Source of the DNA: Clostridia bacterium
GTDB taxonomy: Bacteria > Bacillota > Clostridia > Christensenellales > Aristaeellaceae
Direction of reading: 5' to 3'
DNA: 15,404 nt
NCBI GenBank assembly: GCA_045599485.1
Contig: JAZRWA010000020.1
Span: 1 to 15,404 of the forward strand
The translations under genes and the position numbers were made by a program. Shown here piece after piece: positions 1 through 15,404 of this stretch; within the stretch, counting starts at the first letter, position 1; each line of letters opens with the position of its first letter. The notes beneath the pieces were generated by a model, which was not told the DNA's origin, made no database searches, and saw nothing but the letters and a program-made list of their open reading frames with translations.

Positions 1-748
1 CGGTGACCATCCTGTTGTGCTTCCTGCCTTGGATACTGACTTTAACGAATAGTTTTTGCGCCGTATGCACCCATCCGCAAAGCTGCATCACCGGCAAAAG
101 ACAAGCGTGACCCGCCTGGCGCACGAGACGGCTTTGAAGGAAGAGGAGGACGAGACCGCCGATACCAAGCGCCGTCCCCTGGAGCTGTCCCGCGCCCTGC
201 CCCCGCTGCCCGACTTTATGAAAAAGGAATCCGGCCTATCCGCCGCTGACCGCGGCACCGCCATGCACCGCGTGCTGGGGCTGCTGGACCTGAGCAAGGT
301 CCGGGACATTGCCTCCCTTTCCGTCCTCGATCAGACCGCGCCCATCCGGGCCGAGCTTGAACGGATGCTGTCCCTGGGGCTGTTGACCCAGCCGGAGTAC
401 GATGCCCTGCAAAGTCATCAGATCGCCGCCTTCCTGCTCTCGCCCCTTGGTCAGCGCATGCTGCACTCGCCGTAGGTGCACCGCGAGTGGCCCTTCTATA
501 TGATGCCGGAGGATATGCTCATTCAGGGGGTCATCGACCTGTGCTTCTGGGAGGGGGACGGCTGGGTATTGGCGGATTACAAGACCGACCGCTGTGACGG
601 GGCGGAGCTGTATCGCCGCTATGCCGAGCAGCTGCGCTGGTACGGACGCGCGCTTTCCACCATCACCTGGCTGCCGGTCAGGGAATTGTGGCTGTTTTCC
701 CTTCGCAGCGGCAAGGCCATTGCCGTGGAAGGCTTTGCCGACCCTTGA
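1..748 (+). CDS. addA: AddA-type ATP-dependent helicase/nuclease subunit A, C-terminal RecB-family nuclease domain. The 5' end lies outside the window. One reading frame is interrupted by an in-frame TAG at 473-475.
   Basis: Track ORFs 56-475 and 476-748 are the same frame (both coordinates = 2 mod 3), separated only by TAG 473-475. The upstream part carries SAADRGTAMHRVL. The downstream part carries REWPF and VIDLCFWEGDGWVLADYKTDR, a PD-(D/E)XK / DYKTD-type motif typical of the AddA C-terminus. The gene ends at TGA 746-748. Frame assignment for nt 1-55 is uncertain: there is a further TAG at 50-52 in this frame. Confidence 0.7.
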
Positions 749-774
749 TTTATGCCCCCCGGATGGGGTATAAT
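745..774 (+). promoter_or_regulatory. Candidate sigma-A promoter for the DUF1385-prmC operon
   Basis: TTGATT (745-750), 18-nt spacer, TATAAT (769-774). It lies about 55 nt upstream of ATG 828 and overlaps the addA stop. Confidence 0.4.
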
Positions 775-827
775 ATACAGGAAAAAGTGTTTTGTAAGCG
801 GTTTTGCCGCTTTGGAAAGGAATTTTT

Positions 828-1847
828 ATGAGCAAAAAAGACGAACCCAAGCGCGTCGACATTGGCGGTCAGGCCGTCCTGGAAGGCGTCATGATGCGCT
901 CTCCCGAGTGGGTCGCCCTGGCGGTGCGCCGTCCCGACGGCTCCATCGTCATGAAGCGCGACCCCTGGGTCGCCCCCGCCAAGAAGCACAAGTGGATGGG
1001 GCTGCCCTTTATCCGCGGTGCCGTCAGCATGGCCATGATGCTCACCGTGGGCATGAAAACGCTGTCCGACAGTGCCAAGATGAGCGGACAGGAGGAGGAA
1101 GAGCCCTCCAAATTCGAAAAATGGCTGTCCCAGAAGCTGGGCAAGAGCATTGAGACCGTGGTCATGGCGGTCGCCGCCGTGCTGGCGGTGGTACTGAGCG
1201 TGGGGCTGTTTGTGCTCCTTCCCAACGCCATCATCAAGCTGTTCCCCGATTCGGGCTCCAGCGGCATGCTGCTGATGAAAAACCTCATCACCGGTCTGGT
1301 ACGCACCGTCATTCTGGTGGGCTACATGATGCTGTGCCGCCGCATTCCCGATATGCTGCGCACCTTCCGCTATCACGGCGCCGAGCACAAAACGGTATAC
1401 TGCAACGAGCACAACCTTGAATTGACGCCCGAAAACGCGCAGCAGTTTACCACCCTGCACCCCCGCTGCGGCACCAGCTTTATCCTCATCACCTTCATTC
1501 TTTCCATCATTTTCTACAGCATCATTGATGTTCTGGTGCTAATTCTTACCGGATACAACATGGGTAACAGCTACCTGCTGCGTGTATTGAGCCGCATCGT
1601 GCTGCTGCCCCTGGTGGCGGGCATCAGCTATGAGGCGCTGTTCTTCCTCGCGCATCACGAGGGCAAGGCCTGCGACATCCTGCGCAAGCCGGGCATGCAG
1701 CTGCAGCGTCTGACCACGGCGGAGCCCGATGCCGCCATGCTGGAAGTCGCCATTGCCGCCATGAAGGCCGCCAAGGGCGAACCCATGGAAGGCGAAGTCA
1801 CCCCCGAGGGCTACGTCATCGTGTCCCCGGCAAAGGAGAACGCATGA
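828..1847 (+). CDS. DUF1385 (YqhQ-like) membrane protein
   Basis: Motifs GGQAVLEGVMMR and YHGAEHK, several hydrophobic helices and high GC3 codon bias. ATG 828 is preceded by GGAAAGGAA (813-821). The track ORF starts earlier at 804, but 828 has the RBS. The TGA stop overlaps the prmC start (ATGA 1844-1847). Confidence 0.85.
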   Translation: MSKKDEPKRVDIGGQAVLEGVMMRSPEWVALAVRRPDGSIVMKRDPWVAPAKKHKWMGLPFIRGAVSMAMMLTVGMKTLSDSAKMSGQEEEEPSKFEKWLSQKLGKSIETVVMAVAAVLAVVLSVGLFVLLPNAIIKLFPDSGSSGMLLMKNLITGLVRTVILVGYMMLCRRIPDMLRTFRYHGAEHKTVYCNEHNLELTPENAQQFTTLHPRCGTSFILITFILSIIFYSIIDVLVLILTGYNMGNSYLLRVLSRIVLLPLVAGISYEALFFLAHHEGKACDILRKPGMQLQRLTTAEPDAAMLEVAIAAMKAAKGEPMEGEVTPEGYVIVSPAKENA

Positions 1848-2674
1848 CTATCAAGCAAGCGCTGCGCCTTGGTACGCAGGCACTGGAAGCCGCTTCCGTG
1901 CCCGATGCCGCCTGGGACGCGGCGCTTCTTCTTGCCCACGTGACCTCAAAGCCCGCGCTCTGGCTGCGGGCAAACGGCTTTGAGGAGCTGGGAAGCCCCC
2001 TTTATGAGCAATTTGACGCGCTCATCGCCCGCCGCGCCGCGCGGGAACCGCTGCAGTACATTCTGGGTTCGGTGGCTTTTGAAGGCGTGGAAATTGCCGT
2101 ATCGCCCGATGCCCTGATCCCCCGCATGGATACCGAGGTGCTGTTTGAGCGGACGGCGCTGCGGCTGCGCGGCACCGAAAAGGTGCTTGATCTTTGCACC
2201 GGCACGGGCGTGCTCGCCATCGCGCTCAAGCACAGGTTCCCATCCCTCACGGTCTTTGCCGCGGATAAAAGCGATGCGGCGCTGGCGCTGGCGCAGATCA
2301 ACGCGCTGCGCAATCAAACCGCCGTTCATTTTCGTCAGGGCGATCTGTTTGAGGCGGTGGGGGAGGAACGTTTTGACCTCATTCTTTCCAACCCGCCCTA
2401 CATTTGCGCCGCGGATATGCGGACCCTGCAGGAGGAAGTGCTTCGGGAGCCGCGCATGGCGCTCTTTGGCGGCGAGGACGGGCTGGATTTTTACCGGCGC
2501 ATTGTCGCAGAAGCCCCCAACCACCTCGTGCCCGGCGGCGCTTTGCTGTTTGAGATCGCCTGCTCGCAGGCGGCCGATGTTTCCGCCCTGATGGCTTCTC
2601 ATTTTGATGCCATCACCGTCACCCGCGACCTTTCCGGTCTGGACCGCTGCGTCGAAGGGACGCTGCGGGGATAA
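1844..2674 (+). CDS. prmC: Peptide chain release factor N5-glutamine methyltransferase (PrmC/HemK)
   Basis: SAM-binding VLDLCTGTGVLA, catalytic NPPY (ILSNPPYI), REPRMAL/GGEDGL motif and LEPLQYILG-like REPLQYILG. Translationally coupled to the upstream gene. Stop TAA 2672-2674. Confidence 0.9.
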   Translation: MTIKQALRLGTQALEAASVPDAAWDAALLLAHVTSKPALWLRANGFEELGSPLYEQFDALIARRAAREPLQYILGSVAFEGVEIAVSPDALIPRMDTEVLFERTALRLRGTEKVLDLCTGTGVLAIALKHRFPSLTVFAADKSDAALALAQINALRNQTAVHFRQGDLFEAVGEERFDLILSNPPYICAADMRTLQEEVLREPRMALFGGEDGLDFYRRIVAEAPNHLVPGGALLFEIACSQAADVSALMASHFDAITVTRDLSGLDRCVEGTLRG

Positions 2675-2681
2675 GGACGAT

Positions 2682-2746
2682 GCAGGGGAACCACGCTTTC
2701 CGAAGCCGGAAAGCATGGTTCCCCTGCACCCCTCCGAGAAAGGGCA
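2682..2746 (+). repeat. Type-1 structured repeat, copy A1 (46-nt hairpin plus conserved tail)
   Basis: Hairpin GCAGGGGAACCACGCTTTCCG-AAGC-CGGAAAGCATGGTTCCCCTGC (2682-2727) followed by tail ACCCCTCCGAGAAAGGGCA. Near-identical copy at 8375-8439. Starts 7 nt after the prmC stop. Confidence 0.9.
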
Positions 2747-2763
2747 GATTCATTTCATTTTCA

Positions 2764-2838
2764 GGGGGAGAGGTACGCTTTTCGAAGCCGAAAAGCATAC
2801 CTCTCCCCCTGTGACCCCCTCTCGGAGAAAAGGCAGAC
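2764..2838 (+). repeat. Type-1 structured repeat, copy B1 (variant stem)
   Basis: Hairpin GGGGGAGAGGTACGCTTTTCGAAGCCGAAAAGCATACCTCTCCCCC (2764-2809) is identical to 11184-11229. Tail TGTGACCCCCTCTCGGAGAAAAGGCAGAC. It shares the central ACGCTTT..AAAGCAT core with the A copies. Confidence 0.9.
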
Positions 2839-2937
2839 TTTAGCATAACATCATAACACTCTTACTTCGGTGTCAGATGCTTTCTTCAAAGCAAAAAACG
2901 TATTGCATGCATATCCAGTAAAGGATTGGTGAAAAAA

Positions 2938-3171
2938 GTGAGCAAGATAATTGAAGCTGACATTTTATCAGAAGGCAGAAAGAGAATAAAAATTACACTA
3001 ATAAATGATGAAGTGATTTATGGTGTATCAATGGGAATTATTCCTGCTGTTGATAACGAAGGAGAATAGCTTGATTATGATGTGCTTGTTTTTGATGCGT
3101 ATTCTCCGAATTCATATTTCAAACTGACAGATGAAATGATCAAAAGTATTGAACAAGTGAATAGTATCTAA
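2938..3171 (+). CDS. Small hypothetical protein (about 77 codons) in a low-GC island, with an in-frame TAG at 3067-3069
   Basis: GTG 2938 (alternatives TTG 2926 or GTG 2929), with AAGGA at 2921-2925. Translation: VSKIIEADILSEGRKRIKITLINDEVIYGVSMGIIPAVDNEGE-TAG-LDYDVLVFDAYSPNSYFKLTDEMIKSIEQVNSI-TAA. The frame stays open for 33 more codons after the TAG in AT-rich DNA, and a strong terminator follows. No family recognised. Confidence 0.35.
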
Positions 3172-3198
3172 CATATAGCGTTTTTGTTTATGAAAAAG

Positions 3199-3223
3199 GC
3201 ACTGATCACAATCAGTGCTTTTT
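3199..3223. terminator. Rho-independent terminator, bidirectional in appearance
   Basis: GCACTGAT (3199-3206), loop CACA, ATCAGTGC (3211-3218), then TTTTT (3219-3223). AAAAA precedes it at 3193-3197. It sits 28 nt after the small-ORF stop. Confidence 0.6.
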
Positions 3224-3274
3224 ATCAAGAGTAACTGTTCAATATAGCAGTAACGGTATTCATCAGTAAAATAA

Positions 3275-3326
3275 CACCCTTGTCCTGATGTCAGAAACCT
3301 TTCATCAGGGCAAGGGTGCATTTTTT
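3275..3326. repeat. Type-2 hairpin repeat (ATAACACCCTTG... family), terminator-like
   Basis: CACCCTTGTCCTGATG (3275-3290) pairs with CATCAGGGCAAGGGTG (3303-3318) with one T:G pair, followed by CATTTTTT. Related copies at 11277-11316, 13363-13405 and 14705-14747. Confidence 0.75.
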
Positions 3327-3338
3327 CATTTAAAGAAC

Positions 3339-3396
3339 CGCTTTTTCGCGGAGGGCTTGGGAACCGCCCTTTTGGACTTCAAAAAGGGGGTTCCCA
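3339..3396 (-). repeat. Type-1 structured repeat, copy C1 (inverted orientation)
   Basis: Inverted tail CGCTTTTTCGCGGAGGGC (3339-3356), then hairpin TTGGGAACCGCCCTTTTGG-ACTT-CAAAAAGGGGGTTCCCA (3357-3396). Very similar to 14769-14828. It lies 52 nt downstream of the minus-strand hydrolase stop. Confidence 0.85.
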
Positions 3397-3448
3397 TATC
3401 CTTTTCCGTCTCGTCTTCAGGGCGGGGGATCTCGCCCTGGTTCAGCGA

Positions 3449-4750
3449 TTACTGGGCGGCGCTGTGGCGGATGGTCATGCCGCGGGGAGCGGTATAGACG
3501 GTCTCAAAGCCCTTCCAGTAGTTGACACCGTAGATGCAGTTGGCGCCGACGGGCTCCAGCACATCCAGGTATTCCATCTTTTCGGTCTCGCCCTTCAGCT
3601 TGGCATCCAGGAAAGCGGTGATGAAGTGATCGGTATAGCCGTTCACATTCCACAGATCCCAGATAACGTCGCCCCAGCGGCGCATGTCAGCCAGGGAGCG
3701 ATCCTGCACATCGACGGGCACGGGGTTGGTGATGATGCTGTGATCCAGCATATCGAAGGTCACAAAGTAACGATCGGTATTGACGGTCTTGGCATACATA
3801 TCCAGCACCTGGGCATGGGGCACGATGGTGTCGTAGGTGCCCTGCATCCACAGGGTGGGGGTGTCGATGTTCACAAAGCTGGACTCGTCAAACATGGGCT
3901 GACCCCAGGGGGCGCACAGCACGGCAGCGCTCAGGCGCTTGTCGCCGACGTAGTCTTCAGCTTCGAGCAGCAGGTCTTCATAAGCGGCGATGCGGGCATC
4001 GGCAGCGATGGCGTCCTTGCTCAGCTTGGCACCCAGGGTGCGCAGCAGGCCGTAACCGCCGAAGCTGTAGCCGATCATACCGACGCATTCAGGCTTGAGC
4101 ATGCCGGCCAGGAAGCCTTCGGCATTCAGGCCCTCGAGGGCGTCGATGGTGTGGCGCTGGTCCAGCGTACGGTTCATGATGGCGCTGATCCAGGCGATGT
4201 CGGGGTTGAAGGCGGACACGCCGGTATCGGTGTGCTCCAGAGCCAGAACCACATAGCCCTTGGTGGCCAGGTTCTCGCCCAGGTGGCTCATCAGGTAGCG
4301 GCTGCCGGGATAGCCGTGGGTCACGATGACCACGGGATAGGGACCATCAGCCAGATAGGGATCGGCGTCACGCATGGCGCGGCCCACGAAATCAAAGGCT
4401 TCCAGGTCGTTGGTGTCGCTGCGGCCCATGTGATCGGTGTAGGTGGACAGCTGCACGGCGCCTTCGGCGACCACAGCGGGATACCACACTTCCACGGTCA
4501 GCACGCGGTCATGCAGGGGACGGGGATTTTCGGCGGTAATGGCGGCCAGGTCGACCTGGTCGGGGGTCACGATCTCAATGGTGCGCACGCCGATGGCGTA
4601 CTCGCCGCGCTTGGCCAGCGCGGGGGAGGAGGCGATCGGGTCACCGATCACAGAGCCGACGGGATAGCCTTCTTCGTACACCAGCGTATCGGCGACGGCC
4701 GCGGAGAACAGCATCACAAGGGCGAACAGGATAGCAAGAATTCGCTTCAT
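3449..4750 (-). CDS. Secreted alpha/beta hydrolase (dienelactone hydrolase / PAF-acetylhydrolase-like esterase)
   Basis: 433-aa ORF. N-terminal signal peptide MKRILAILFALVMLFSAAVA, nucleophile elbow GYSFGG (GxSxG), VTHGYPG oxyanion-type region, and later QGTYDT (Asp) and LDHS (His) candidates. RBS GAAGGAGAA on the minus strand (4762-4770). Stop TAA 3449-3451. Confidence 0.85.
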   Translation of the reverse strand: MKRILAILFALVMLFSAAVADTLVYEEGYPVGSVIGDPIASSPALAKRGEYAIGVRTIEIVTPDQVDLAAITAENPRPLHDRVLTVEVWYPAVVAEGAVQLSTYTDHMGRSDTNDLEAFDFVGRAMRDADPYLADGPYPVVIVTHGYPGSRYLMSHLGENLATKGYVVLALEHTDTGVSAFNPDIAWISAIMNRTLDQRHTIDALEGLNAEGFLAGMLKPECVGMIGYSFGGYGLLRTLGAKLSKDAIAADARIAAYEDLLLEAEDYVGDKRLSAAVLCAPWGQPMFDESSFVNIDTPTLWMQGTYDTIVPHAQVLDMYAKTVNTDRYFVTFDMLDHSIITNPVPVDVQDRSLADMRRWGDVIWDLWNVNGYTDHFITAFLDAKLKGETEKMEYLDVLEPVGANCIYGVNYWKGFETVYTAPRGMTIRHSAAQ

Positions 4751-4983
4751 GGTTTTTTGTTTTCTCCTTCTTCATTTTAATGGAACGGGGGAAGAGTATC
4801 AACAAGCCTCCTCCCGCGGCAGCAGCCGACGGTTTCAAGGCGGTTTTTGCGGAAATGCGCACAGAATCGATCCCCTTTCCATGCTGTGCATTCCGCGGTC
4901 TTCCGTCTGTTTTTCCGTTTCTTTCTCTGCCGGGGGGCTGCGTGTTTCTGTTTCTGCCGGACAGGCGCGTCCGGTTTTGCCGA

Positions 4984-5012
4984 TTGCTTTTTCAACGCAC
5001 CTTGCGTATAAT
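4984..5012 (+). promoter_or_regulatory. Candidate sigma-A promoter for the 5136 gene
   Basis: TTGCTT (4984-4989), 17-nt spacer, TATAAT (5007-5012). Confidence 0.4.
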
Positions 5013-5135
5013 GAAAATACTCACGCTGCGTTCATTTACACCATCGGGTCATTTGCTTTCCATATTATACAATTTTAAATGTTTTGTGTCAACAATATTC
5101 TTTACATTTCAAATCTTTTTGTAAGGAGTTCTCCC

Positions 5136-6578
5136 ATGAAAAAGATATTGTCCTTCCTCATCGCCCTGCTGCTGCTTTTTTCCTGCGCCGGCGCGGATTC
5201 CCTCATCTACGGCAGCGGCACCTGGGAATGCCCGTCCTGCGGCAGCCTCAACTGCGGTCAGCACTGCGGTGCCTGCGGCGCCCCCATCCCGCTGTGGCAG
5301 TGCCCTGCCTGCAGCGGCTTCATGACCTCGCCCTACTGCGTCAACTGCGGCATGGAAAAATACTATTCCCTCGGCACCGCCGCGCTGGCGGTGAGCGATT
5401 TTGAAGCCGCCATCGGTTATCTGGAATCGTCCCGCAGCCCCGAAGCCTGGGACGCGCTGGCCGGGGCGTGGGTTCAGGCGGCCCGAAGCTTCGAATATGA
5501 CCACGACTATGAGAATGCCCTTTATTGCTATCAGAATGCCGAAGTCTACGGCGCGGATGTTTCCGACAAAGTCTCCCACTGCAGCTACCAGCTGGCCACC
5601 GTGCTGTACCGGGAAGGCGATTATCCGGCCGCCATGGAGCTGCTGGATTCCCTCGGTGATTACAGGGACAGTGCCGACGCTGCCCGTGATTGCCGCTATC
5701 AGCAGGCCCTTTTATAGGAAGAAAACGGCCGGTTCGCCGAGGCGGCCGCCCTTTACGCGCAGATTCCGGGGTACAAGGACAGCGACAGCCGCTATCGTAC
5801 GCTCACCTGCGCGCTGGCGTCCGAATGCTTTGAAAACGGTCAGTACGACGAAGCCGCCGCGCTCTACGGCGAATTTGAATACGATGATGACTGCATGTCC
5901 CAGCGCACGGAGGCGCTTCGCCGCAGCGACCTGGTCAAACGCTTCACCCTCCAATGCTGCCTCCGCGTGGCAGATGCCGACGGCGCAATTGCCTACCGAT
6001 ACGGCTCCGCCACCGCGTATCTTGATGACCTGAACGAAGGCGATTCCCTGCAGCTGCTCCTGGCGCTGTCGGGGGCAGCTTCCGCTTCCGCGGATGTGCA
6101 GCTGCGCTGGAACGGCGGCGAATTACAGACCGCGGCGCTCTCCGCGTCTGAATTCGAACAGGCCGAATTTGTTGTCTCCCTCCCCGCCGAGGCGGGCACC
6201 TTCCCCTTTGAGGTCTTTGTCGGCGGTGTTAAGTTCAAGGAAGATACCGCCGAGATCCTGCCCTCGGGCGGTCATCGTCCCAGGGCGGTGAGATCGGAAA
6301 GTACCCGCACCGCTTCCGCCTCCGCCAATGGCTTTATGGGCCCCGTGTATGTCAAAATCACCGTAACTGACAGCAACACCCTCAGCTCCATCGTCATCGG
6401 CGATCACCGCTTCGAGGAGATCCTCGGCAGCAAGGTGCTGGAGGAGAGTTATCAGCAGCAGTTCATCGGCAAATCGCTGCCGCTTGGCCCGAATGATGTG
6501 GACGCCTGCGCCGGCGCGACCATCACCTCCGCCGCCGTGGTGGAGGCCGTCAACGCCGCCTTTGCCTCGCTTCCGTAA
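5136..6578 (+). CDS. Putative lipoprotein with double zinc ribbon, TPR-like repeats and a C-terminal FMN-binding (FMN_bind) domain. The frame contains an in-frame TAG at 5715-5717.
   Basis: RBS TAAGGAG (5122-5128), then ATG 5136. Signal and lipobox-like MKKILSFLIALLLLFSCAG, then CPSCG..CGACG..CPAC..CVNCG zinc ribbons. Repeats of the type YREGDYPAAMELL / ENGRFAEAAALY / ENGQYDEAAALY lie on both sides of the TAG. Track ORFs 5079-5717 and 5895-6578 are in the same frame, with no other stop between them. The C-terminus GFMGPVYVKITV...VDACAGATITSAAVVEAVNAA matches the FMN_bind flavinylation-type motif. Stop TAA. Confidence 0.7.
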
Positions 6579-6596
6579 AACCGATACCCTTCCCTC

Positions 6597-6633
6597 GGGG
6601 GACCGTTCCGTACGGTTCCCCGTTTCTTTTTTT
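6597..6633 (+). terminator. Rho-independent terminator
   Basis: GGGGACCGT..loop..ACGGTTCCCC (one bulge) followed by GTTTCTTTTTTT. It starts 19 nt after the 6578 stop. Confidence 0.6.
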
Positions 6634-6737
6634 GTCGTTTGCAAAAAACGTTTGCCCCGCGGCCGCCCTCCCGCAAACGTTGGTAAAGGCGTGCTGCTTC
6701 ATAAGTCGTTGCAAAAATGTTTATCTTTTGTTAGAAA

Positions 6738-7048
6738 TGTGGATAAAATCCCCTGTGGATAACTTTTGTGGATAACTTCGGTGGATAAATGGAGTTATCC
6801 ACAGGGTTTTTGCACATTGAACACGGGAAAATCAACAAAATCAAGGGTTTTTGCACCAAATTCGGTGGATAACTATGTGGATAATGTGGATAACCTCCTT
6901 TTTCTTCCCTTGCGCATATCTTGTATGTAAGCCGCGGGAGCACCACAAGACCATCATTTCTGGGCAAAATATCCCCTTTTTTTTGAGGTTATCCACCGAG
7001 TCACGGTGGATAAAAATTGGAAAAGTGGATTTTTTCGCTTGTGGATAA
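6738..7048. promoter_or_regulatory. DnaA-box cluster (oriC-like or DnaA-titration/regulatory locus)
   Basis: Perfect TTATCCACA or its complement at 6738-6746, 6754-6762, 6767-6775, 6795-6803 (opposite orientation), 6876-6884, 6885-6893 and 7040-7048. One-mismatch TTATCCACC at 6780-6788, 6864-6872, 6989-6997 and 7005-7013. A weak box at 7024-7032. The cluster lies in a 650-bp non-coding, lower-GC gap. Confidence 0.85.
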
Positions 7049-7147
7049 CCTTTCGCCGCGGGAGCGAACAGCGGCGGAATAAGAGGCGATGTCTTTCAAA
7101 AAGCGTCTTTGATGTCATAAAACCGTAACAATTAAAGATCCGAATCA

Positions 7148-7156
7148 TGGTATACT
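7148..7156 (+). promoter_or_regulatory. Possible extended -10 promoter element for the 7229 gene
   Basis: TGgTATACT (7148-7156). There is no convincing -35. Confidence 0.3.
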
Positions 7157-7228
7157 GATACAGGCGGAAAAAAGCGGCTCACGCCGTCCCTCCGCCGCAA
7201 AAAGCGAACGATCCGAAAGGAAAACGAT

Positions 7229-8350
7229 ATGATCGACAGCAGAAAACACGTATGTCTGGCCACCGCCTCGGCGGGGCTGGAGGGCGTGGTCAAGCGGGAG
7301 CTTCTCTCCCTGGGCTTTGAAGACGCCAAGGCGGAGCTGGGCGCCGTGCGCTTCACCGCCGATTACGCGGGCATGATGAAGGCCTGTCTGTGGCTGGCGT
7401 GTGCCGACCGCGTACTCATTGTGGTCAGGGAAGGCCACGCCGAGACCTTTGAAGACCTTTTTCAGCTGGTATTGAGGGCGCCGTGGAGCGATTATCTGCC
7501 CAAGGATGCCGCCATCCCCGTGTCGGGGCGCTGCTCGCGCAGCAAGCTGATGTCCGTGCGCGACTGCCAGGCCATCACCAAAAAGGCCATTGTGGAGCAC
7601 ATGAAGCGCGCCTTCCACACGCAGCTTTTGCCCGAAACGGGCCCGCGCTTTCAGGTCGATGTGGCCCTGCACGGCGACACGGCGCGCTTGACGCTGGATG
7701 CCAGCGGCGAGGCGCTCAACCGCCGCGGCTACCGCACCTGGAACGGCGAAGCGCCCCTGCGCGAAACGCTGGCCGCCGCCATGGCGCGCCTGGCCTTCTG
7801 GGACAAGCGTCAGCCCCTGCACGATCCCTGCTGCGGCACGGGCACGCTGCTCATTGAAGCGGCCTTTTACGCCGCGCGCCGCGCGCCGGGGCTGAACCGC
7901 TCCTTTGACCTGGAGCGCTGGCCGTATGCCGACGCGCGCGAGCTTTCCCGCCTGCGGGAGGAGGCCGCCGCCGCCTTTGACCCGTCCCTCATTCCCCCCA
8001 TCACGGGCAGCGACCTCGATCCCAACGCTTTGGAGCTGTGCCACCGCCACATCCGTCAGGCGGGGCTGGAATCCTACATCCGCGTTTACCCTGCCGACCT
8101 GCGGCAGCTGACGGTTGAGGGGCCTTCGCCGTGCTTTATTGCCAACCCGCCCTACGGCGAGCGCCTTGGCGACAAAAAGCAATGCGAAGAATTGTACCGC
8201 GCCTTTAAGCCCCTCATGCTGCGCCACCCCGGCTGCAGCCTGAACCTGATCACCTCCCACCCCGGCTTTGAGCGCGTTGCCGGCCTGCGCAGCCGCAAAA
8301 AGACGCGCATGTACAACGGCCGCCTCGAGTGCGATTACATGAGGTTTTGA
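7229..8350 (+). CDS. THUMP-domain class I SAM-dependent RNA methyltransferase (COG0116, RlmL/YpsC-like)
   Basis: 373 aa. The N-terminus ATASAGLEGVVKRELLSLGF is typical of the family. SAM motif DPCCGTGTLLIEAA and catalytic NPPYGERLG. RBS GAAAGGA (7215-7221). Stop TGA. Confidence 0.85.
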   Translation: MIDSRKHVCLATASAGLEGVVKRELLSLGFEDAKAELGAVRFTADYAGMMKACLWLACADRVLIVVREGHAETFEDLFQLVLRAPWSDYLPKDAAIPVSGRCSRSKLMSVRDCQAITKKAIVEHMKRAFHTQLLPETGPRFQVDVALHGDTARLTLDASGEALNRRGYRTWNGEAPLRETLAAAMARLAFWDKRQPLHDPCCGTGTLLIEAAFYAARRAPGLNRSFDLERWPYADARELSRLREEAAAAFDPSLIPPITGSDLDPNALELCHRHIRQAGLESYIRVYPADLRQLTVEGPSPCFIANPPYGERLGDKKQCEELYRAFKPLMLRHPGCSLNLITSHPGFERVAGLRSRKKTRMYNGRLECDYMRF

Positions 8351-8374
8351 CGAAGGATTTTGACGAAAGGTTTT

Positions 8375-8439
8375 GCAGGGGAACCACGCTTTCCGAAGCC
8401 GGAAAGCATGGTTCCCCTGCACCCCTCCGAGAAAGGGCA
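8375..8439 (+). repeat. Type-1 structured repeat, copy A2
   Basis: Matches 2682-2746 exactly by eye across hairpin and tail. It starts 24 nt after the methyltransferase stop. A degenerate half-copy with the tail CCGAGAAATGGAAAACTTTATTGCACAGCAC follows at about 8507-8560. Confidence 0.9.
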
Positions 8440-8553
8440 AACTTTATTGCGCAGCACAGCACCCTTGCACGTACGAAAGTTGCTTTCAGCAAAACAAGGG
8501 GAGTTCAGCATGCTCTTCCCAAGCCTGCCCCGAGAAATGGAAAACTTTATTGC

Positions 8554-8586
8554 ACAGCACCCCAGCCCGGATGCTGTTTGTTTTTT
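8554..8586 (+). terminator. Possible Rho-independent terminator
   Basis: CAGCACCC / GGATGCTG stem with one mismatch, followed by TTTGTTTTTT. Confidence 0.4.
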
Positions 8587-8723
8587 CCCGCCGCTTTTCC
8601 CTTGTTCATGTGCCGTTTTTTACCAACACTGCCATTGACAGAAAGCCTCTTTTTGACATACAATAAGTGTATAATTCAGGAAAATTTCCGCCATATCGGC
8701 GGGTAAAAGAAAGGAAATCAAAC

Positions 8724-9893
8724 ATGCTTCAGAAAAAGTGTGTAGCCATGCTGTTGGCCGGCGGTCAGGGCAGCCGTTTGGGCGTGCTGACCAAGCATAT
8801 GGCCAAGCCCGCCGTTCCCTTCGGCGGCAAATACAGGATCATTGACTTCCCGCTGTCCAACTGCACCAACAGCGGCATTGACACCGTGGGTGTTCTGACG
8901 CAGTATCGTCCTCTGGAGCTGAATGCCTACATCGGCAACGGCGCCCCCTGGGATCTGGACGTCAACAACGGCGGCGTGTACGTGCTGCCCCCCTATCAGA
9001 CCGGCGCCACCGGCGAATGGTACAGCGGCACCGCCAACGCCATTTACCAGAACCTGGCCTTTATTGCCCAGTACAATCCCGAGCATGTGCTCATCCTGTC
9101 CGGTGACCACATCTACAAGATGGATTACAACGACATGCTGCGCCACCACATCGATACCGATGCCGACGTGACCATTGCCGTCCGTCAGGTGCCGTGGGAG
9201 GATGCCAGCCGTTTCGGCCTGATGAACACCGATGCCTCCGGCCGCATCATTGAGTTTGAAGAGAAGCCCAAGAACCCCAAGAGCAACAACGCCTCCATGG
9301 GTGTGTACATCTTCAAGTGGGAAAAGCTCCGCGATTATCTGATCGCCGACGAAGCCAACCCCAACAGCTCCAACGACTTTGGCAAAAACATCATCCCCAA
9401 CATGCTCAATGACGGCTGCATGATGAGCGCCTACAACTTCAACGATTACTGGAAGGACGTCGGCACCATCGACTCCCTGTGGGAGTCCAACATGGACCTG
9501 CTGACCGATCCCCTGCCCATTGACCTGTATGACCGCAAGTGGCGCGTGTATGCCCGCAACTTCGGCTCTCTGCCCCAGTACATCGCCGACGGCGCTGTCG
9601 TCAAGGATGCCCTGGTGACCGAAGGCTGCGAAGTGTACGGCACCGTGGAGCACAGCGTGCTGTCCACCGACGTCAAGGTGGAAGAAGGCGCTGTCGTCAA
9701 GGACAGCGTGATCCTGCCCGGCGCCACCATCAAAAAGGGCGCTGTGGTCATCCGCGCCATCGTGGCGGAAAAGGCCGTCATCGGTGAAAACGCCGTGGTC
9801 GGCGCCGAAGGCGGCGAGATCGCCGTGGTCGGCAATAATACCACTATTCCCGAGGGCGGCACCGTCGCTCCCGGCGAACAGGTTGGCGAGTAA
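8724..9893 (+). CDS. glgC: Glucose-1-phosphate adenylyltransferase (ADP-glucose pyrophosphorylase catalytic subunit)
   Basis: [40 protein letters not shown] and a C-terminal left-handed beta-helix repeat region. ATG 8724 with GAAAGGAAA upstream; the track ORF begins earlier at 8667. Stop TAA. Confidence 0.92.
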
Positions 9894-9908
9894 AGGAGGC
9901 GGCCGAAT

Positions 9909-11030
9909 ATGAACAATCTGATGGGTCTGATCTTCACCGGTGAAAACCTCGGTCATCTGGGCACCCTGACCGCCATGCGCGATGTGGCGGCTGTGCCTGT
10001 GGCCTCCCGTTACCGCATTGTGGACTTTATCATCTCCTCCATGGTCAACAGCGGCGCCCGCAACGTGGGCCTGATCGTGCAGCAGAACTACCACAGCCTG
10101 ATGGATCATCTGGGCACCGGCAAGGAATGGGACCTGCACGGCAAGCGCCGCAGCCTGACCATTCTGCCCCCCTACACCATGCCCGGCAGCATCGGCATGT
10201 ACAACGGCCTGCTGGACAGCATCAAGAGCAACATCCACTTCCTGCGCCGCTGCACCGAGCGCTATGTGGTGGTCACCGAAGCCAACATGCTCTACACCGC
10301 GCGCTTTGACGAAATGCTCGCCAAGCACGTGGAAACGAACGCTGACATCACCGTGATGTACAACAGCGATCCCGCCCTCATCCGCAGCAGCTGGGGCCGC
10401 TACATCAATGTGGCGGTGGACGGCCGTGTCACCGATCTGGAGATCAACCCCGTGCTGCCCAACAACTCCAAGAGCATGATGGGTGCCTTCATCATCCGCC
10501 GTGAGCTGCTCATTGAGCTGGTGGACCGCGCCATTGCCCGCGGCCAGTATCACTTCACCCGTGAGGTGCTCATCGACGCCATCCACAACGGCACCTACAA
10601 GGTGTACGGCTGGGAAAACACCAACAAGGTGTGGCGCATCGAAAACGTCAACGATTATTACAACGCCTCCATGGATCTGCTGTGCAGCGATTCCAAGGCG
10701 TCCCTGTTCAAGCCCGAGTGGCCCATCCTCACCCCTGTGCATGACGAAATGTCCTCCCGTCTGTGCCCCGGCTCCCAGGTCAAAAACAGCCTGATCGCCG
10801 ATGGCTGCAAGATCGAGGGCACCGTTGAAAACTGCGTCATCTTCCGCGGTGTGCAGATCAAAAAGGGTGCTGTGGTGCGCAACTGCGTCATCATGCAGGA
10901 CAGCATGATCATGGAAAACGCGCATCTGGAGGGCGTCATCCTGGACAAGGAGTGCATCGTGCGCGAGGAAGTGGTCATGATCTCTCCCAAGTCCTGCCCG
11001 AACGTGCTGCCCAAGGGCGCTGTCATCTAA
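9909..11030 (+). CDS. glgD: Glucose-1-phosphate adenylyltransferase subunit GlgD (non-catalytic)
   Basis: GlgC paralogue lacking the GGxGxRL signature (IFTGENLGHLGTLT), with RYRIVDF present. AGGAGG at 9894-9899. Lies directly downstream of glgC, as in Firmicutes glgCD pairs. Confidence 0.9.
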   Translation: MNNLMGLIFTGENLGHLGTLTAMRDVAAVPVASRYRIVDFIISSMVNSGARNVGLIVQQNYHSLMDHLGTGKEWDLHGKRRSLTILPPYTMPGSIGMYNGLLDSIKSNIHFLRRCTERYVVVTEANMLYTARFDEMLAKHVETNADITVMYNSDPALIRSSWGRYINVAVDGRVTDLEINPVLPNNSKSMMGAFIIRRELLIELVDRAIARGQYHFTREVLIDAIHNGTYKVYGWENTNKVWRIENVNDYYNASMDLLCSDSKASLFKPEWPILTPVHDEMSSRLCPGSQVKNSLIADGCKIEGTVENCVIFRGVQIKKGAVVRNCVIMQDSMIMENAHLEGVILDKECIVREEVVMISPKSCPNVLPKGAVI

Positions 11031-11042
11031 ATAACATTTTTT

Positions 11043-11100
11043 GCAGGGGAACCACGCTTTCAGGGCCTGAAAGCATGGTTCCCCTGCACCCTTCCAGAAA
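11043..11100 (+). repeat. Type-1 structured repeat, copy A3
   Basis: GCAGGGGAACCACGCTTTCAGGGCCTGAAAGCATGGTTCCCCTGC (11043-11087) plus a degenerate tail. It starts 12 nt after the glgD stop. Confidence 0.85.
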
Positions 11101-11116
11101 TAATAATCATCATTAA

Positions 11117-11160
11117 GGGGGAAAGGTACGCTTTTCAAAGCCGAAAAGCATGCCCGCCCC
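11117..11160 (+). repeat. Type-1 structured repeat, degenerate copy
   Basis: GGGGGAAAGGTACGCTTTTCAAAGCCGAAAAGCATGCCCGCCCC retains the central core, but the outer stem is decayed. Confidence 0.6.
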
Positions 11161-11183
11161 AAACCTCGATAATAAAGTAATAA

Positions 11184-11258
11184 GGGGGAGAGGTACGCTT
11201 TTCGAAGCCGAAAAGCATACCTCTCCCCCTTTGACCCCCTCACGGAGAAAAGGCGGTC
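11184..11258 (+). repeat. Type-1 structured repeat, copy B2
   Basis: The 46-nt hairpin is identical to 2764-2809. Tail TTTGACCCCCTCACGGAGAAAAGGCGGTC. Confidence 0.9.
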
Positions 11259-11276
11259 TATAACATACATCATAAC

Positions 11277-11325
11277 ACCCTTGCCTCGATGAGAATATCT
11301 TCATCAAAGCAAGGGTACTTTTTTA
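11277..11325 (+). terminator. Type-2 hairpin repeat, probably acting as the glgD terminator
   Basis: ACCCTTGCCTCGATGA / TCATCAAAGCAAGGGT stem (two C:A mismatches) followed by ACTTTTTT. Confidence 0.5.
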
Positions 11326-11334
11326 CAATTCAAT

Positions 11335-11362
11335 ACCCTTGCACTGGCATTCATGCAAGGGT
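11335..11362. repeat. Short type-2-like hairpin
   Basis: ACCCTTGCA (11335-11343), 10-nt loop, TGCAAGGGT (11354-11362). Confidence 0.5.
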
Positions 11363-11383
11363 GTAACGCACAGGATATCATAC

Positions 11384-11449
11384 TGCCCTTTCTCGGAGGG
11401 GATTAAAAGGGGAACCATGCTTTCCGGCTTCGGAAAGCGTGGTTCCCCT
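11384..11449 (-). repeat. Type-1 structured repeat, inverted copy
   Basis: Inverted tail TGCCCTTTCTCGGAGGGG (11384-11401), then hairpin AGGGGAACCATGCTTTCCGGCTTCGGAAAGCGTGGTTCCCCT (11408-11449). It lies 16 nt downstream of the minus-strand glgA stop. Confidence 0.9.
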
Positions 11450-11465
11450 TTGAAAATCGTCTTTC

Positions 11466-13154
11466 TTACTCCGCGTCGGCTTTCTTCGCGGCAGGCTTGC
11501 GGGTGCGCTTGGGCTTGGCAGGCGCTTCTTCCCCCTCCGCAGCGGGCTTCTTCGCAGCAGGCTTGCGGGTACGCTTGGGCTTCGCGGGCGCTTCCTCGGC
11601 CACGGCTTCGATCACGACCTCTTCCACCACGGGCGTTACGATCTCCTCGTCCGCGGGCGCTTCGGCCACCGCAGGCACGGCCGCTTCCGCCGCGTCCTCC
11701 GCCACGGGGGCGGGGGCGCTGGGCAGCATGCTGGCGTACAGGGACTCATACACCTCAGCGGAGTGCGTCCAGCTGTAATCGCCCTCCATGCCGCGCACCA
11801 TCAGGTTCTGCCACACATCGCTCTTCTCGCGGAAGTAGCGCACCGCACGGCGGATGGTAAACAGCATGTCATGCGCGTTGTAGTTGAAGAAGGTAAAGCC
11901 GTTGCCGGCGTTGTTGTAATGGTTGTAGCTCAGCACGGTATCACGCAGGCCGCCGGTCTCGCGCACGATGGGCACGCAGCCATAGCGCAGGGCGATCATC
12001 TGGGTGAGGCCGCAGGGCTCAAAGCGGCTGGGCATCAGCATCATGTCGGCACCGGCATAAATGCGGTGCGCCAGACCGTTATCCATCTGGAAGCGGGCGG
12101 CGACACGGCCGGGATACTGCTGCTCCGCCCAGCTGAAGAGGTTGACATAGCGGCTTTCGCCCATGCCCAGCACCACCAGCTGCACGTTTTCTTCCATGAT
12201 CTGGCCGATCACGTGATCCACCAGGTCCAGGCCCTTCTGGCTGGACAGGCGGGTGACCATGCCGATGACGGGCACGGAGGGATCGACGTTGAGCCCCAGC
12301 TCCTGCTGCAGGCTTTCCTTGCAGGCGGCACGGCCGCTCATATCGGCAAGGCTGTAATTGAAGGGGATCAGCGCGTCATCCGCGGGGTTCCAGGCGTTGA
12401 TGTCGATGCCGTTGAGCACGCCGGACAGGTTGGCACGGCGGGAACGGAGCAGGCCATCCATGCGCTCACCGTAATAGGTGGTCTGGATCTCCTCGGCATA
12501 GCTGGGGGACACGGTGGTGATCTCATCGGAATACACCAGCGCGGCCTTCATAAAGTTGGCGCAGCCGAAGCTGGCCAGCTTGTCCTCGGTGAAGTCGCCC
12601 TCGTTCAGGCTCAGCACATCGCGCAGCTGATCGATGCCGAACACGCCCTGATACTGCAGGTTGTGGATGGTGTACACCGTGCGGATGCCCTGATAGAAAT
12701 CCACACCGCTGTACTGGATCTTGAGCAGCGCGGGGATCATGCCAGCCTGCCAGTCATGGGCGTGCAGAATGTCGGGCTTGAAGCCCAGCAGGCGCATGCC
12801 CTCCAGCACAGCACGGTCAAAGAAGGCATAACGCTCGTACTCGTCGCCGCCCGCGCCGTACACATAATCACGCTTGAAGTAGTATTCGTTGTCGATAAAG
12901 TACCACTTGACGCCCTCGGCCTCGATCAGCTCGATGCCGCAGTACTGCTTTCTCCAGCCCAGAGTGACTTCAAAATTCATCACATGGGTCATGGCATCCT
13001 TGTACTTGTCGGGGATCATGCCGTACTTGGGGATCATGACCGCCACATCATTGCCGCGCTTGGCCAGCACGGGCGCCAGAGCGCCCACCACGTCCGCCAG
13101 ACCGCCGGTCTTGATGAAGGGCACGCATTCGCTCGCCGCAAACAAAATCTTCAT
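11466..13154 (-). CDS. glgA: Glycogen synthase (ADP-glucose type) with an unusual ~84-aa low-complexity C-terminal extension
   Basis: MKILFAASECVPFIKTGGLADV (KTGGL motif), then typical GT5 features. ATG at 13152-13154 is preceded by AAGGAG on the minus strand. The track ORF extends to 13343 through repeat DNA, and I reject that extension. Stop TAA 11466-11468. Confidence 0.92.
   Translation of the reverse strand: MKILFAASECVPFIKTGGLADVVGALAPVLAKRGNDVAVMIPKYGMIPDKYKDAMTHVMNFEVTLGWRKQYCGIELIEAEGVKWYFIDNEYYFKRDYVYGAGGDEYERYAFFDRAVLEGMRLLGFKPDILHAHDWQAGMIPALLKIQYSGVDFYQGIRTVYTIHNLQYQGVFGIDQLRDVLSLNEGDFTEDKLASFGCANFMKAALVYSDEITTVSPSYAEEIQTTYYGERMDGLLRSRRANLSGVLNGIDINAWNPADDALIPFNYSLADMSGRAACKESLQQELGLNVDPSVPVIGMVTRLSSQKGLDLVDHVIGQIMEENVQLVVLGMGESRYVNLFSWAEQQYPGRVAARFQMDNGLAHRIYAGADMMLMPSRFEPCGLTQMIALRYGCVPIVRETGGLRDTVLSYNHYNNAGNGFTFFNYNAHDMLFTIRRAVRYFREKSDVWQNLMVRGMEGDYSWTHSAEVYESLYASMLPSAPAPVAEDAAEAAVPAVAEAPADEEIVTPVVEEVVIEAVAEEAPAKPKRTRKPAAKKPAAEGEEAPAKPKRTRKPAAKKADAE
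11481..11598 (-). repeat. 66-nt-period tandem duplication inside the glgA 3' end
   Basis: 11481-11532 and 11547-11598 are near-identical. Each encodes EEAPAKPKRTRKPAAKK. Confidence 0.85.
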
Positions 13155-13224
13155 ATGGGTAATTCTCCTTAAAATAGAATGAATTATGATATTACAACAT
13201 CGGTTTTCACACAAAACCAGCTTC

Positions 13225-13253
13225 ATAATACCACATTTTGCCGCTTTACGCAA
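13225..13253 (-). promoter_or_regulatory. Candidate glgA promoter
   Basis: The minus strand reads TTGCGT (13253-13248), 17-nt spacer, TGgTATTAT with -10 at 13230-13225. Confidence 0.45.
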
Positions 13254-13279
13254 GGGAACGGCAGCATTGGATGTTGATC

Positions 13280-13486
13280 GGGGAGGGTACGCTTTTCGTG
13301 CCGAAAAGCATGCCCTCCCCCAACCCCTCCTGAGAAAAGGCAATCATGATCATACAGCATAACACCCCTGCTCCGATGACAGATTTCTTCATCCAAAGCA
13401 AGGGTACAATTATTTGATGAAATGATTGCTTTTTCTCGGAAGGTTTGGAAACCCTGCTTTTTGGCTTCAAAAAGCGTGGTTTCCAA
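13280..13486. repeat. Composite MITE-like element: type-1 hairpin + tail, central type-2 hairpin, inverted tail + type-1 hairpin
   Basis: Left hairpin 13280-13320, tail CAACCCCTCCTGAGAAAAGGCA 13321-13342. CATAACACCCC and the type-2 hairpin at 13363-13405. Inverted tail TGCTTTTTCTCGGAAGGT at 13428-13445, right hairpin TTGGAAACC...GGTTTCCAA at 13445-13486. No ORF. Confidence 0.75.
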
Positions 13487-13499
13487 GAACCCCCGTCCG

Positions 13500-14618
13500 T
13501 TATTCTAATAGCGGCTCGAGCACCGTGTTCATCACGTCCATGCCGCGCTGAGAAAGAAGAAGATGGGAACGTGTCAGCAAAGCACGCCCGTCCGCGATGG
13601 CGGGGGCCAGGGCGGCGCCGTAGCGTGTCATCAGATCCACACCGTAGCGCTGTTTAAATTCTGCAAGCGCAATGCCCTGCGTCAGCCGCATCCCCAGCAT
13701 CACGGCCTCAAACAGCATTTCGTCCGGGCCGATGTGCTCTGTCTCGCCCGCCTCGCCGCCAAGGTACGCGTCCAGCGTTTGCGGGTTGGTGCGGCGGTCA
13801 TTCTGCCACAGGGAGGCCGCGGCGCAGCCGAAGCCCAGGTAATCCTCGCGTTTCCAGCAGTTCACGTTGTGCCGGCATTCCTCGCCCGGCACGGCAAAAT
13901 TGCTGATCTCATACTGCAAAAGCCCATTTTCACGGAAGATACTGCGGCACAGCTCATACTGCGCGCGGTCCTCTTCATCGCCCGGCAGGGTCAGCCGTCC
14001 GTGTGTCAGATCATCATACAGCGGCGTGCCCTCCTACGGGATCAGCGCGTAGCAGCTGATGTGCTTTACGCCCAGCCCCATCACAAAGCGCGCGGTCTGT
14101 TCGGCGTCCCGCATCGTCATGCCGGGGAGTGCCAGCATCATATCGGCATTGAGCCGCTCAATGCCCGCCGTACGCACGATGGCCGCGGCGTTGACCGCGT
14201 CCTATACCGTATGGATGCGCCCGATGCTTTTGAGCAGCCGGTCGCTTGCGCTCTGCACGCCCATCGATACACGGTTGACGCCGCCTTCAAAAAGCGCGGC
14301 GGCTTTTTCCGCCGTGATGGTACCGGGGTTCATTTCGCTGGTCCATTCGGTGTTTTCCGCCAGAGGAAAGCTGTCCCGAACCGCCTGACACAGCCTGTAC
14401 AGCAGTTCTTCCGGCAGCAGCGTGGGCGTGCCTCCGCCAAAGAACACCGTGTCGGCCATGGGATGCCCCAGCGCGTCCGACCGGCGGCGCATTTCCTCCG
14501 CCACCGCGTCCACATAGCGCTGCATATCGTTTTCCCGCCCCGCCCAGCTGGCAAAGTCGCAGTAGCGGCACTTGCTTTTGCAAAACGGCACATGCACGTA
14601 GATTCCCAGATGCTTCAT
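13500..14618 (-). CDS. hemW: Radical SAM heme chaperone / oxygen-independent coproporphyrinogen-III oxidase-like protein (HemW/HemN family). The frame contains two in-frame TAG codons (14202-14204 and 14034-14036).
   Basis: MKHLGIYVHVPFCKSKCRYCDF (CxxxCxxC), FFGGGTP, NRVSMGVQS, GRIHTV-TAG-DAVNAAAIVRTAGIERLNADMMLALPG..., SCYALIP-TAG-EGTPLY..., YEISNFA...HNVNCW. Track ORFs 14202-14618 and 13500-13919 are in the same frame, and I translated the gap with no other stops. RBS GGAGGTG. Stop TAA 13500-13502. Confidence 0.8.
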
Positions 14619-14897: not shown

Positions 14898-15404
14898 ATG
14901 AAAAAGCTGATTTCCCTGCTGCTGGCGGCGCTGATGCTGCTTTCCCTGTGCGCTTCCGCTTTTGCGGAGGAGCCCGTGCTGGCCTCCACCAAGTCCCTGA
15001 CCGCGCTGCTGGACAGCCAGAACCTCAACTACACCTGCTACGGTCTGGATGATGACGGCGATGACCACATTTCCATCGGCGTATCCAACGACGATCTGAA
15101 CCTCAAGTACACCATGGAGCTGTTCTTCAGCGATGACCTGGAGGCCGCTTATGTATACGTCTGGTACCTGATCAGCTACAGTGCCGAAAATCAGTCTGCT
15201 GTGACCGCCCTGTGCAACGAGATCAATTCCGCCTTCCGCTATGCCACCTTTGTCGCCGATGACCGTGACAACACCGTGACCGTCAAGAACGCCGCCTTCC
15301 TGCGCAGCGTGGACGATGCCGGCGCCATCGTGTTTGACATGATGACCACCATGGCCAGCGTGATCGATGAAGTGTATCCCTACCTGGCCGAATACGCCAA
15401 CTGA
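14898..15404 (+). CDS. Small secreted hypothetical protein (possibly YbjN-like fold; family call weak)
   Basis: RBS AAAGGAG (14882-14888), then ATG 14898. Signal peptide MKKLISLLLAALMLLSLCASAFA, high GC3 bias, and the gene ends at TGA 15402-15404. The upstream part of track ORF 14649-15404 is repeat DNA. Confidence 0.75.
   Translation: MKKLISLLLAALMLLSLCASAFAEEPVLASTKSLTALLDSQNLNYTCYGLDDDGDDHISIGVSNDDLNLKYTMELFFSDDLEAAYVYVWYLISYSAENQSAVTALCNEINSAFRYATFVADDRDNTVTVKNAAFLRSVDDAGAIVFDMMTTMASVIDEVYPYLAEYAN

Follow-up and report, generated by a model that had tools for sequence, protein, structure and literature searches.

A probable reassignment of UAG from stop to glutamate in a lineage of uncultured gut Clostridia

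Gene content of the window

A stretch of 15,404 nucleotides from a Clostridia bacterium (assembly GCA_045599485.1), hereafter called the window, carries six TAG codons that lie in frame within four otherwise intact genes. Here we describe these codons, their counterparts in related contigs and the residue for which they appear to stand. The window is part of a 16,346-bp NCBI contig (JAZRWA010000020.1) and has a guanine plus cytosine (GC) content of ~59% over its 15.4 kb. The gene map was built from a translation in which TAG was read through, followed by Pfam annotation, and the sequence base of the analysis consists of the ~15 kb window together with ~35 kb from relatives. In the genuine genes of the window, the GC content reaches ~0.75-0.85 at third codon positions (GC3) compared with ~0.4 at second positions (GC2). 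Twelve genes were mapped:

2-748, plus strand: 3' part of addA, cut by the window start; stop codon TGA; Pfam PDDEXK_1; 91.5% identity to the AddA of contig L001
828-1847, plus strand: DUF1385 gene; stop codon TGA
1844-2674, plus strand: prmC; stop codon TAA
2929-3171, plus strand: small gene of 81 amino acids (aa) in a low-GC island; stop codon TAA
4750-3449, minus strand: alpha/beta hydrolase gene; stop codon TAA
5136-6578, plus strand: lipoprotein gene with signal peptide, TPR-like repeats and C-terminal FMN_bind; stop codon TAA
7229-8350, plus strand: THUMP methyltransferase gene; stop codon TGA
8724-9893, plus strand: glgC; stop codon TAA
9909-11030, plus strand: glgD; stop codon TAA
13154-11466, minus strand: glgA; stop codon TAA
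14618-13500, minus strand: hemW, radical SAM haem chaperone, 372 codons; stop codon TAA; Pfam Radical_SAM and HemN_C
14898-15404, plus strand: second lipoprotein gene; stop codon TGA

By this content the window is chromosomal housekeeping sequence of a Clostridia-type bacterium and not phage DNA.

In-frame TAG codons in four intact genes

The six in-frame TAGs are distributed over addA (two), the small gene (one), the lipoprotein gene (one) and hemW (two):

50-52, plus strand: TAG in addA, codon 17 of the partial open reading frame (ORF); TAG in 6/6 strains of the clade that cover the site, GAG in the outgroup contig L014
473-475, plus strand: TAG in addA, inside the PD-(D/E)XK nuclease domain; the Pfam PDDEXK_1 match spans the site
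3067-3069, plus strand: TAG in the 81-aa small gene; homologues align across it
5715-5717, plus strand: TAG in the lipoprotein gene, residue 194; Pfam TPR_19 (residues 157-223) spans the site
14202-14204, minus strand: TAG in hemW, residue 139 of 372, inside Radical_SAM (residues 7-179)
14034-14036, minus strand: TAG in hemW, residue 195 of 372, with HemN_C (residues 298-361) downstream in the same frame

All six had been reported in the original prediction, which was made from the letters of the window, and each was found again at its position. The one at 50-52 had been listed as a possible site and is now secure from its conservation in the clade. As had also been claimed, the genes of the window contain neither an internal TAA or TGA nor a frameshift that would have to be corrected. 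Counted over the sense strands of all 12 genes, TAG is in frame six times and out of frame only three times, so that chance is not able to explain the pattern.

Homology crosses the TAGs at exactly one aligned column and without a gap. In the case of hemW, all 120 full-length homologues (42-64% identity) align straight through both TAGs, and addA aligns through both of its sites with the TAG-free outgroup L014. The stretch spanning a HemW TAG reads ...SCYALIP[E]EGTPLYDDLTHGR and that spanning an AddA TAG ...MLHSP[E]VHR, with E written at the TAG. Nineteen representative homologues of the small gene (68-145 aa) were collected, most of which align in one stretch across the TAG; because they match on both sides, we consider it a real gene and not a 47-aa ORF ending in TAG. 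The lipoprotein gene continues in the same frame for ~200 residues beyond its TAG to FMN_bind (residues 399-476), and TPR matches span the codon. The expectation that frame and family motifs run on past the TAGs was thus borne out. The GC3-rich codon bias that had been described around them is present with the exception of the low-GC small ORF, which lacks this bias and yet belongs to a real gene family. Public gene calls on the source contig stop the hemW and lipoprotein fragments at the first TAG.

As a separate compositional observation, the tetranucleotide CTAG does not occur in the window (~5.4 expected) or in the clade loci L001, L011, L017 and L018, and none of the in-frame TAGs is preceded by C.

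TAG codons recur in related strains and are missing from the nearest outgroup

Relatives were collected by protein searches. A PrmC scan of the GTDB representative genomes yielded contig L001 (JAKSQG010000066.1; PrmC 83% identical), which belongs to the horse-faeces metagenome-assembled genome JAKSQG01 (Horse_feces223) labelled 'Clostridia bacterium'. A search with the DUF1385 protein led to ten proteins that cluster at 90% identity, and their contigs L011, L012, L013, L017, L018, L024, L025 and L026 come from ENA and Logan assemblies. The datasets with clade sequence include ERZ27247126/129/179, ERR6929691, SRR27361835, SRR21151038, SRR21150839 and SRR14246009. A GlgA search added one clade match on a 1.9-kb contig. 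The window organism, JAKSQG01 and several of the ENA/Logan assemblies form the lineage in question, a clade of uncultured gut Clostridia in the Bacillota. The nearest outgroup obtained was L014, a contig from JGI 3300020112 with a DUF1385 protein 84% and an AddA 56% identical to those of the window, and the more distant relatives L019-L023 (GlgA ~70% identical) turned out to be standard-code outgroups. A scan of JGI metagenomes with DUF1385 found no relatives, and a search of IMG/VR with the dispersed hairpin repeat of the clade gave no match.

All relatives of the clade that cover any TAG site carry TAGs (8/8). The codons are found again in assemblies of NCBI, ENA and Logan origin that stem from ~10 samples, a count that includes short contigs not reaching a TAG site. 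The addA site at 50-52 is covered by the window, L001, L011, L017, L018 and L026 and is TAG in every one, retained over a synonymous divergence (dS) of ~0.4-0.5. Outside the clade, L014 had no TAG in the 1,770 codons of its AddA, DUF1385 and PrmC genes; in L019-L021, genes run without interruption for as many as 2,441 aa and TAG serves as a terminator. Based on the TAG-free genes of L014 and the intact genes of L019-L021, the use of UAG as a sense codon appears confined to the clade and absent from the nearest outgroup contig.

Two further JGI contigs, L015 (R18__coassemble_11124) and L016 (R15__coassemble_7757), are possible members of the clade: they are short, have 59-61% GC and carry a GC-rich hairpin repeat of the window (family A, see below). 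They encode SDR, MBL-fold and MutY proteins as well as aldehyde dehydrogenase, RnfC-like and BMC-domain proteins, contain no in-frame TAG, and all six of their complete genes end in TAA or TGA.

The TAG columns point to glutamate

Together with five further sites in addA and prmC of the relatives, the six TAGs of the window make up eleven sites, ten of which can be aligned. Glutamate (Glu) is the commonest aligned residue at 10/10 of these columns, which were drawn from the window and eight related contigs of independent datasets. The clearest column is residue 195 of hemW, where Glu is found in 120/120 homologues within the motif CYALIxEEGTPL. The TAG column of the small gene shows Glu in 15/17 homologues (motif GEELDYD). 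Residue 139 of hemW is a variable column with Glu in 53/120 homologues, followed by Ala, Asp and Arg (14 each) and Gln (10); Glu is also the residue of P0001, the closest homologue. The original prediction, by comparison with E. coli HemW, had placed the two hemW TAGs at a Gln and at a conserved Glu: the second assignment holds, while the first does not, since this column is mostly Glu, best match included. The encoded residue, which had been thought not to be readable from the sequence, is readable as Glu from the alignable columns.

Comparison within the clade leads to the same residue. There are six TAG columns in addA of the clade, and every member without TAG at such a column has GAG or GAA. 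The codon at 473-475 is TAG in the window only, GAG in L001, L011, L017 and L018, and a Glu codon in L024 and L026, with His in the outgroup L014. Twelve codons further on, at 509-511 (plus strand; motif YMMP[E/TAG]DMLIQG), the pattern is reversed, with GAG in the window and L014 and TAG in L001, L011, L017, L018, L024 and L026. At three further addA columns a single strain has TAG and all other covering strains of the clade have GAG or GAA. The prmC site at 2447-2449 (plus strand) is TAG in L001, L011, L012 and L024, GAA in L017 and L018, and GAG in the window and L014; this column, which is Glu in 8/9 distant PrmC homologues, sits in the conserved E-P-x-x-A-L (clade motif EVLx[E/TAG]PRMAL).

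Altogether, seven columns of addA and prmC vary between TAG and GAG/GAA among strains, the alternating codons inside the clade are GAG and GAA only, and TAG<->GAG exchange is seen between strains that are 96-98% identical. TAG accounts for ~2% of the Glu codons and ~0.15% of all codons in the window. These alignments show that TAG is translated, in essential-type genes, as a single residue functionally interchangeable with Glu, and that it drifts to and from GAG/GAA among strains like a synonymous codon. We therefore regard it as very probable that UAG is a sense codon for Glu in this lineage.

It is highly improbable that UAG stands for anything else, be it the Gln of phage code 15, pyrrolysine or some other residue. 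Gln is the usual outcome when TAG is reassigned in phages and eukaryotes, and it occurs in the minority of homologues given above at residue 139 of hemW. Against this, Gln is absent from the remaining nine columns, no clade member has CAG or CAA in place of TAG, and neither the invariant Glu of hemW nor the EP motif of PrmC would tolerate Gln or pyrrolysine. Phage code 15 itself was rejected on the bacterial housekeeping content of the window as well as on the single column with Gln. A pyrrolysine-like system, one of the options raised earlier, was likewise dismissed, as the TAGs lie at Glu positions in addA, prmC, hemW and the lipoprotein and small genes and not in methylamine methyltransferase genes. 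None of pylT, pylS and pylBCD was detected within the window.

Purifying selection downstream of the TAGs

For the part of addA downstream of the TAGs we obtained ratios of nonsynonymous to synonymous substitution (dN/dS) of 0.03-0.14; the window and the L001 group differ there by a dS of 0.36-0.57. Values in this range imply that translation passes the TAGs and that the product is under selection.

The same result bears on the idea of decaying pseudogenes hit by nonsense mutations, or of errors that recur in sequencing or assembly. In favour of an error, a change from GAG to TAG needs a single G-to-T exchange, which is a signature of oxidative damage. A G-to-T artefact or unconstrained decay is disfavoured because changes from GAA to TAA would be expected too, and none were seen in the genes of the window. 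We also found no sequence motif shared around the TAG sites that would point to methylation or a base-calling artefact, and the sharing of TAGs among strains tracks sequence similarity. Pseudogene decay was excluded by the lack of TGA, TAA or indel lesions together with the purifying selection downstream, and an artefact by the presence of the same TAGs in assemblies from independent projects. The earlier argument against decay, which had pointed to TAG as the only type of lesion and to the four unrelated genes affected within 15 kb, is reinforced by the dN/dS values and by the TAGs of eight related contigs, and we judge decay or error to be extremely improbable.

Terminators, release factor 1 and the proposed decoding tRNA

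The 12 gene ends of the window use TAA eight times, TGA four times and TAG never, exactly the tally that had been given before. With two further genes in L001, 0/14 genes of the clade end in TAG, compared with 3/19 in related standard-code contigs of similar GC content.

These observations are best explained if the whole lineage has reassigned UAG to Glu and terminates at UAA and UGA only, which we hold to be quite probable. Decoding would be the task of a dedicated Glu-charged tRNA with the anticodon CUA, most simply a derivative of tRNA-Glu (CUC or UUC). Most Bacillota employ a non-discriminating glutamyl-tRNA synthetase (GluRS), for which position 36 of the anticodon may be C or G. One hypothesis is that such relaxed reading of position 36 could make the product of a CUC-to-CUA anticodon change chargeable. 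Release factor 1 (RF1, encoded by prfA) would be lost or would no longer recognise UAG. The likely order of events would be that TAG stops and RF1 disappeared, that the free codon was captured by the new tRNA and that GAG codons then mutated to TAG. The full model, including the CUA tRNA and the loss of RF1, we consider likely. It seems to us reasonably likely that this is a natural cellular bacterial lineage with 62 sense codons, with Glu as the meaning of UAG throughout the genome, no RF1 and a newly evolved tRNA-Glu(CUA).

What favours the loss of RF1 is the presence of as many as four TAGs in one gene, which would otherwise not be efficiently expressed. The competing view is that a Glu-inserting amber suppressor tRNA operates next to a functional RF1, so that UAG is ambiguous, partly read through here and a terminator elsewhere. 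Its adherents could point to the small number of genes (14) from which the lack of TAG stops was read, and to the rarity of TAG noted above, as expected if the codon is costly. Under this view, however, competition by RF1 would sharply lower the full-length yield of the L017 AddA with four TAGs and of hemW with two. Moreover, one TAG stands at an invariant Glu of a catalytic domain, and TAG and GAG swap freely between nearly identical strains, as a near-neutral synonymous change would. We rate a suppressor with retained RF1 as unlikely; the sequence covered here is compatible both with a genome-wide reassignment and with a strong suppressor next to RF1.

A further possibility is that RF1 was lost without the gain of a dedicated tRNA, UAG being read by near-cognate tRNAs, for example by tRNA-Glu(CUC) mispairing with the first base of the codon. 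RF1-deficient E. coli reads UAG in this way and inserts five different residues, namely Gln, Tyr, Trp, Glu and Lys; quantification followed the Gln, Tyr and Lys products (PMC4333366). In contrast to this mixture, Glu leads at all ten columns here, and none points to Gln, Tyr or Lys. Slow and error-prone decoding would also be selected against at the invariant Glu of hemW. The clean Glu signal, even at this position, favours a dedicated tRNA over near-cognate reading, which we think very unlikely. What near-cognate reading has on its side, apart from the E. coli precedent, is the result of tRNA scans of the window and 14 related contigs (by a wider count, nine clade-related and 10 further contigs): these detected no tRNA gene of any kind and so no CUA tRNA.

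Several points weigh against a lineage-wide reassignment to Glu, and the tRNA scans just mentioned are the first of them. At a TAG usage of 16%, the lack of TAG stops among the 14 genes has P ~0.09 and rests on a small sample. prfA is not in the window, and its absence after prmC is uninformative since L014 has the same order. The term 'genome-wide' is an extrapolation from ~15 kb plus ~35 kb. At the eleventh site, the TAG of the lipoprotein gene, no residue could be read, as there is no usable homologue and the register of the TPR-like repeats is ambiguous; the hydrophobic or aromatic repeat position put forward earlier for this site is only tentative. Finally, residue 139 of hemW and two or three of the addA columns are variable and carry little information singly.

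The order DUF1385-prmC-prfA is found in three Lachnospiraceae contigs (L004-L006). The proposal that prfA was deleted from the low-GC gap after prmC was rejected, because the TAG-free L014 has its lipoprotein gene right after prmC. The prmC gene, whose product is the methyltransferase of release factors, is conserved and undamaged throughout the clade and is itself TAG-bearing in four strains.

Comparison with known genetic codes

According to the Codetta paper (PMC8629427), every code change known from bacteria concerns UGA. For prokaryotes, the sources covered describe one UAG reassignment of genome-wide extent, that to pyrrolysine in archaea; it is the sole UAG case listed in a 2026 GTDB-related preprint, and code 34 was not observed in bacteria (Kivenson et al.). 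In the literature searched, we came across no bacterium in which UAG is naturally a sense codon, in line with the earlier statement that no free-living Firmicute with general UAG sense coding is known.

The case follows the pattern of the UGA reassignments in bacteria, with another codon, another release factor and another amino acid. In code 4 (UGA=Trp; Mycoplasmatota and others) and code 25 (UGA=Gly; Gracilibacteria/Absconditabacteria), as here, a stop became a sense codon across a monophyletic lineage and two stops were kept. The known UGA reassignments are accompanied by a new tRNA and the loss of RF2, whereas here the codon is UAG, the release factor would be RF1 and the residue Glu. UGA recoders typically have AT-rich or reduced genomes. 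The genome considered here is, in contrast, GC-rich (~59%).

Amber is also used as sense in the gut microbiome by phages with code 15 (TAG=Gln; crAss-like, Lak and other gut phages), which employ suppressor tRNAs. These are phage genomes in standard-code hosts with Gln as the residue, whereas the present TAGs belong to a chromosomal gene set (addA, prmC, glgCDA, hemW) and point to Glu. The archaeal code 34, in which all TAGs encode pyrrolysine, is likewise a prokaryotic UAG sense code with two stops and is hard to detect, as coding density barely falls. It differs in its pyrrolysyl-tRNA synthetase and tRNA-Pyl, its 22nd amino acid and its occurrence in Archaea; here a standard residue would be used in Bacteria. 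A change from stop to Glu is known from eukaryotes, namely UAR=Glu (UAA and UAG) in peritrich ciliates (code 30) and Blastocrithidia nonstop (code 31). In these nuclear codes UAA and UAG change together, whereas UAA is the commonest terminator here (8/12 genes). Engineered E. coli without RF1 (RF1 knockouts, C321.deltaA) is likewise viable with UAG as sense or unassigned but is man-made, and the present lineage would be its natural counterpart with a canonical amino acid on UAG.

If the reassignment is true, it would be, as far as we found, the first of amber in the domain Bacteria and the first from stop to Glu in any prokaryote, and it would have arisen in a GC-rich, apparently free-living clade of gut Clostridia and not in a reduced AT-rich genome. 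A bacterium with UAG=Glu would add a new translation table and would demonstrate that natural bacteria can do without RF1. With TAG and GAG still interchanging between strains of a GC-rich genome, the clade offers a natural test case for the codon-capture and ambiguous-intermediate models, and it might be the source of a natural, Glu-charged tRNA that decodes amber, which would be of interest for genetic code engineering. Standard annotation splits TAG-bearing genes, and such genomes may therefore score as less complete and their proteins may be missing or truncated in databases. Phages and horizontally transferred genes may also find it harder to enter a lineage with a differing code.

Other features of the locus

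An Rfam scan of the window matched no family. GC-rich perfect palindromes of 40-48 nt are present in most of its larger intergenic gaps and fall into two families:

2684-2725, 8377-8418 and 11408-11449: hairpins of family A
2763-2810, 11113-11154, 11183-11230 and 13265-13298: hairpins of family B

Diverged copies lie at 3359, 11046, 13447 and 14789. Family A was also found in the clade contigs L001 (at 8863) and L011 (at 3307) and not in the outgroup L014. Both families look like dispersed elements of the repetitive extragenic palindromic (REP) or terminator type and may be lineage-specific.

The low-GC island at 2850-3300, between prmC and the hydrolase gene, houses the 81-aa small gene; 1-kb profile windows over it drop to a GC content of 0.47-0.50 compared with ~0.59 overall. 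The small gene has no Pfam family match, and its homologues (68-145 aa) have the motif GIxPAxDxxGEELDYD in common. The 3' end of glgA contains a 66-nt tandem duplication (11469-11600), encoding a Lys/Ala-rich basic tail (repeats ...PAKPKRTRKPAAKK...) that is unusual for a glycogen synthase. Compared with positions 2675-7228 of the window, the corresponding region of L011 (3260-4363) has lost the hydrolase gene together with the greater part of the lipoprotein gene, and what remains is a short ORF that fuses the signal peptide of the lipoprotein to its last ~14 residues.

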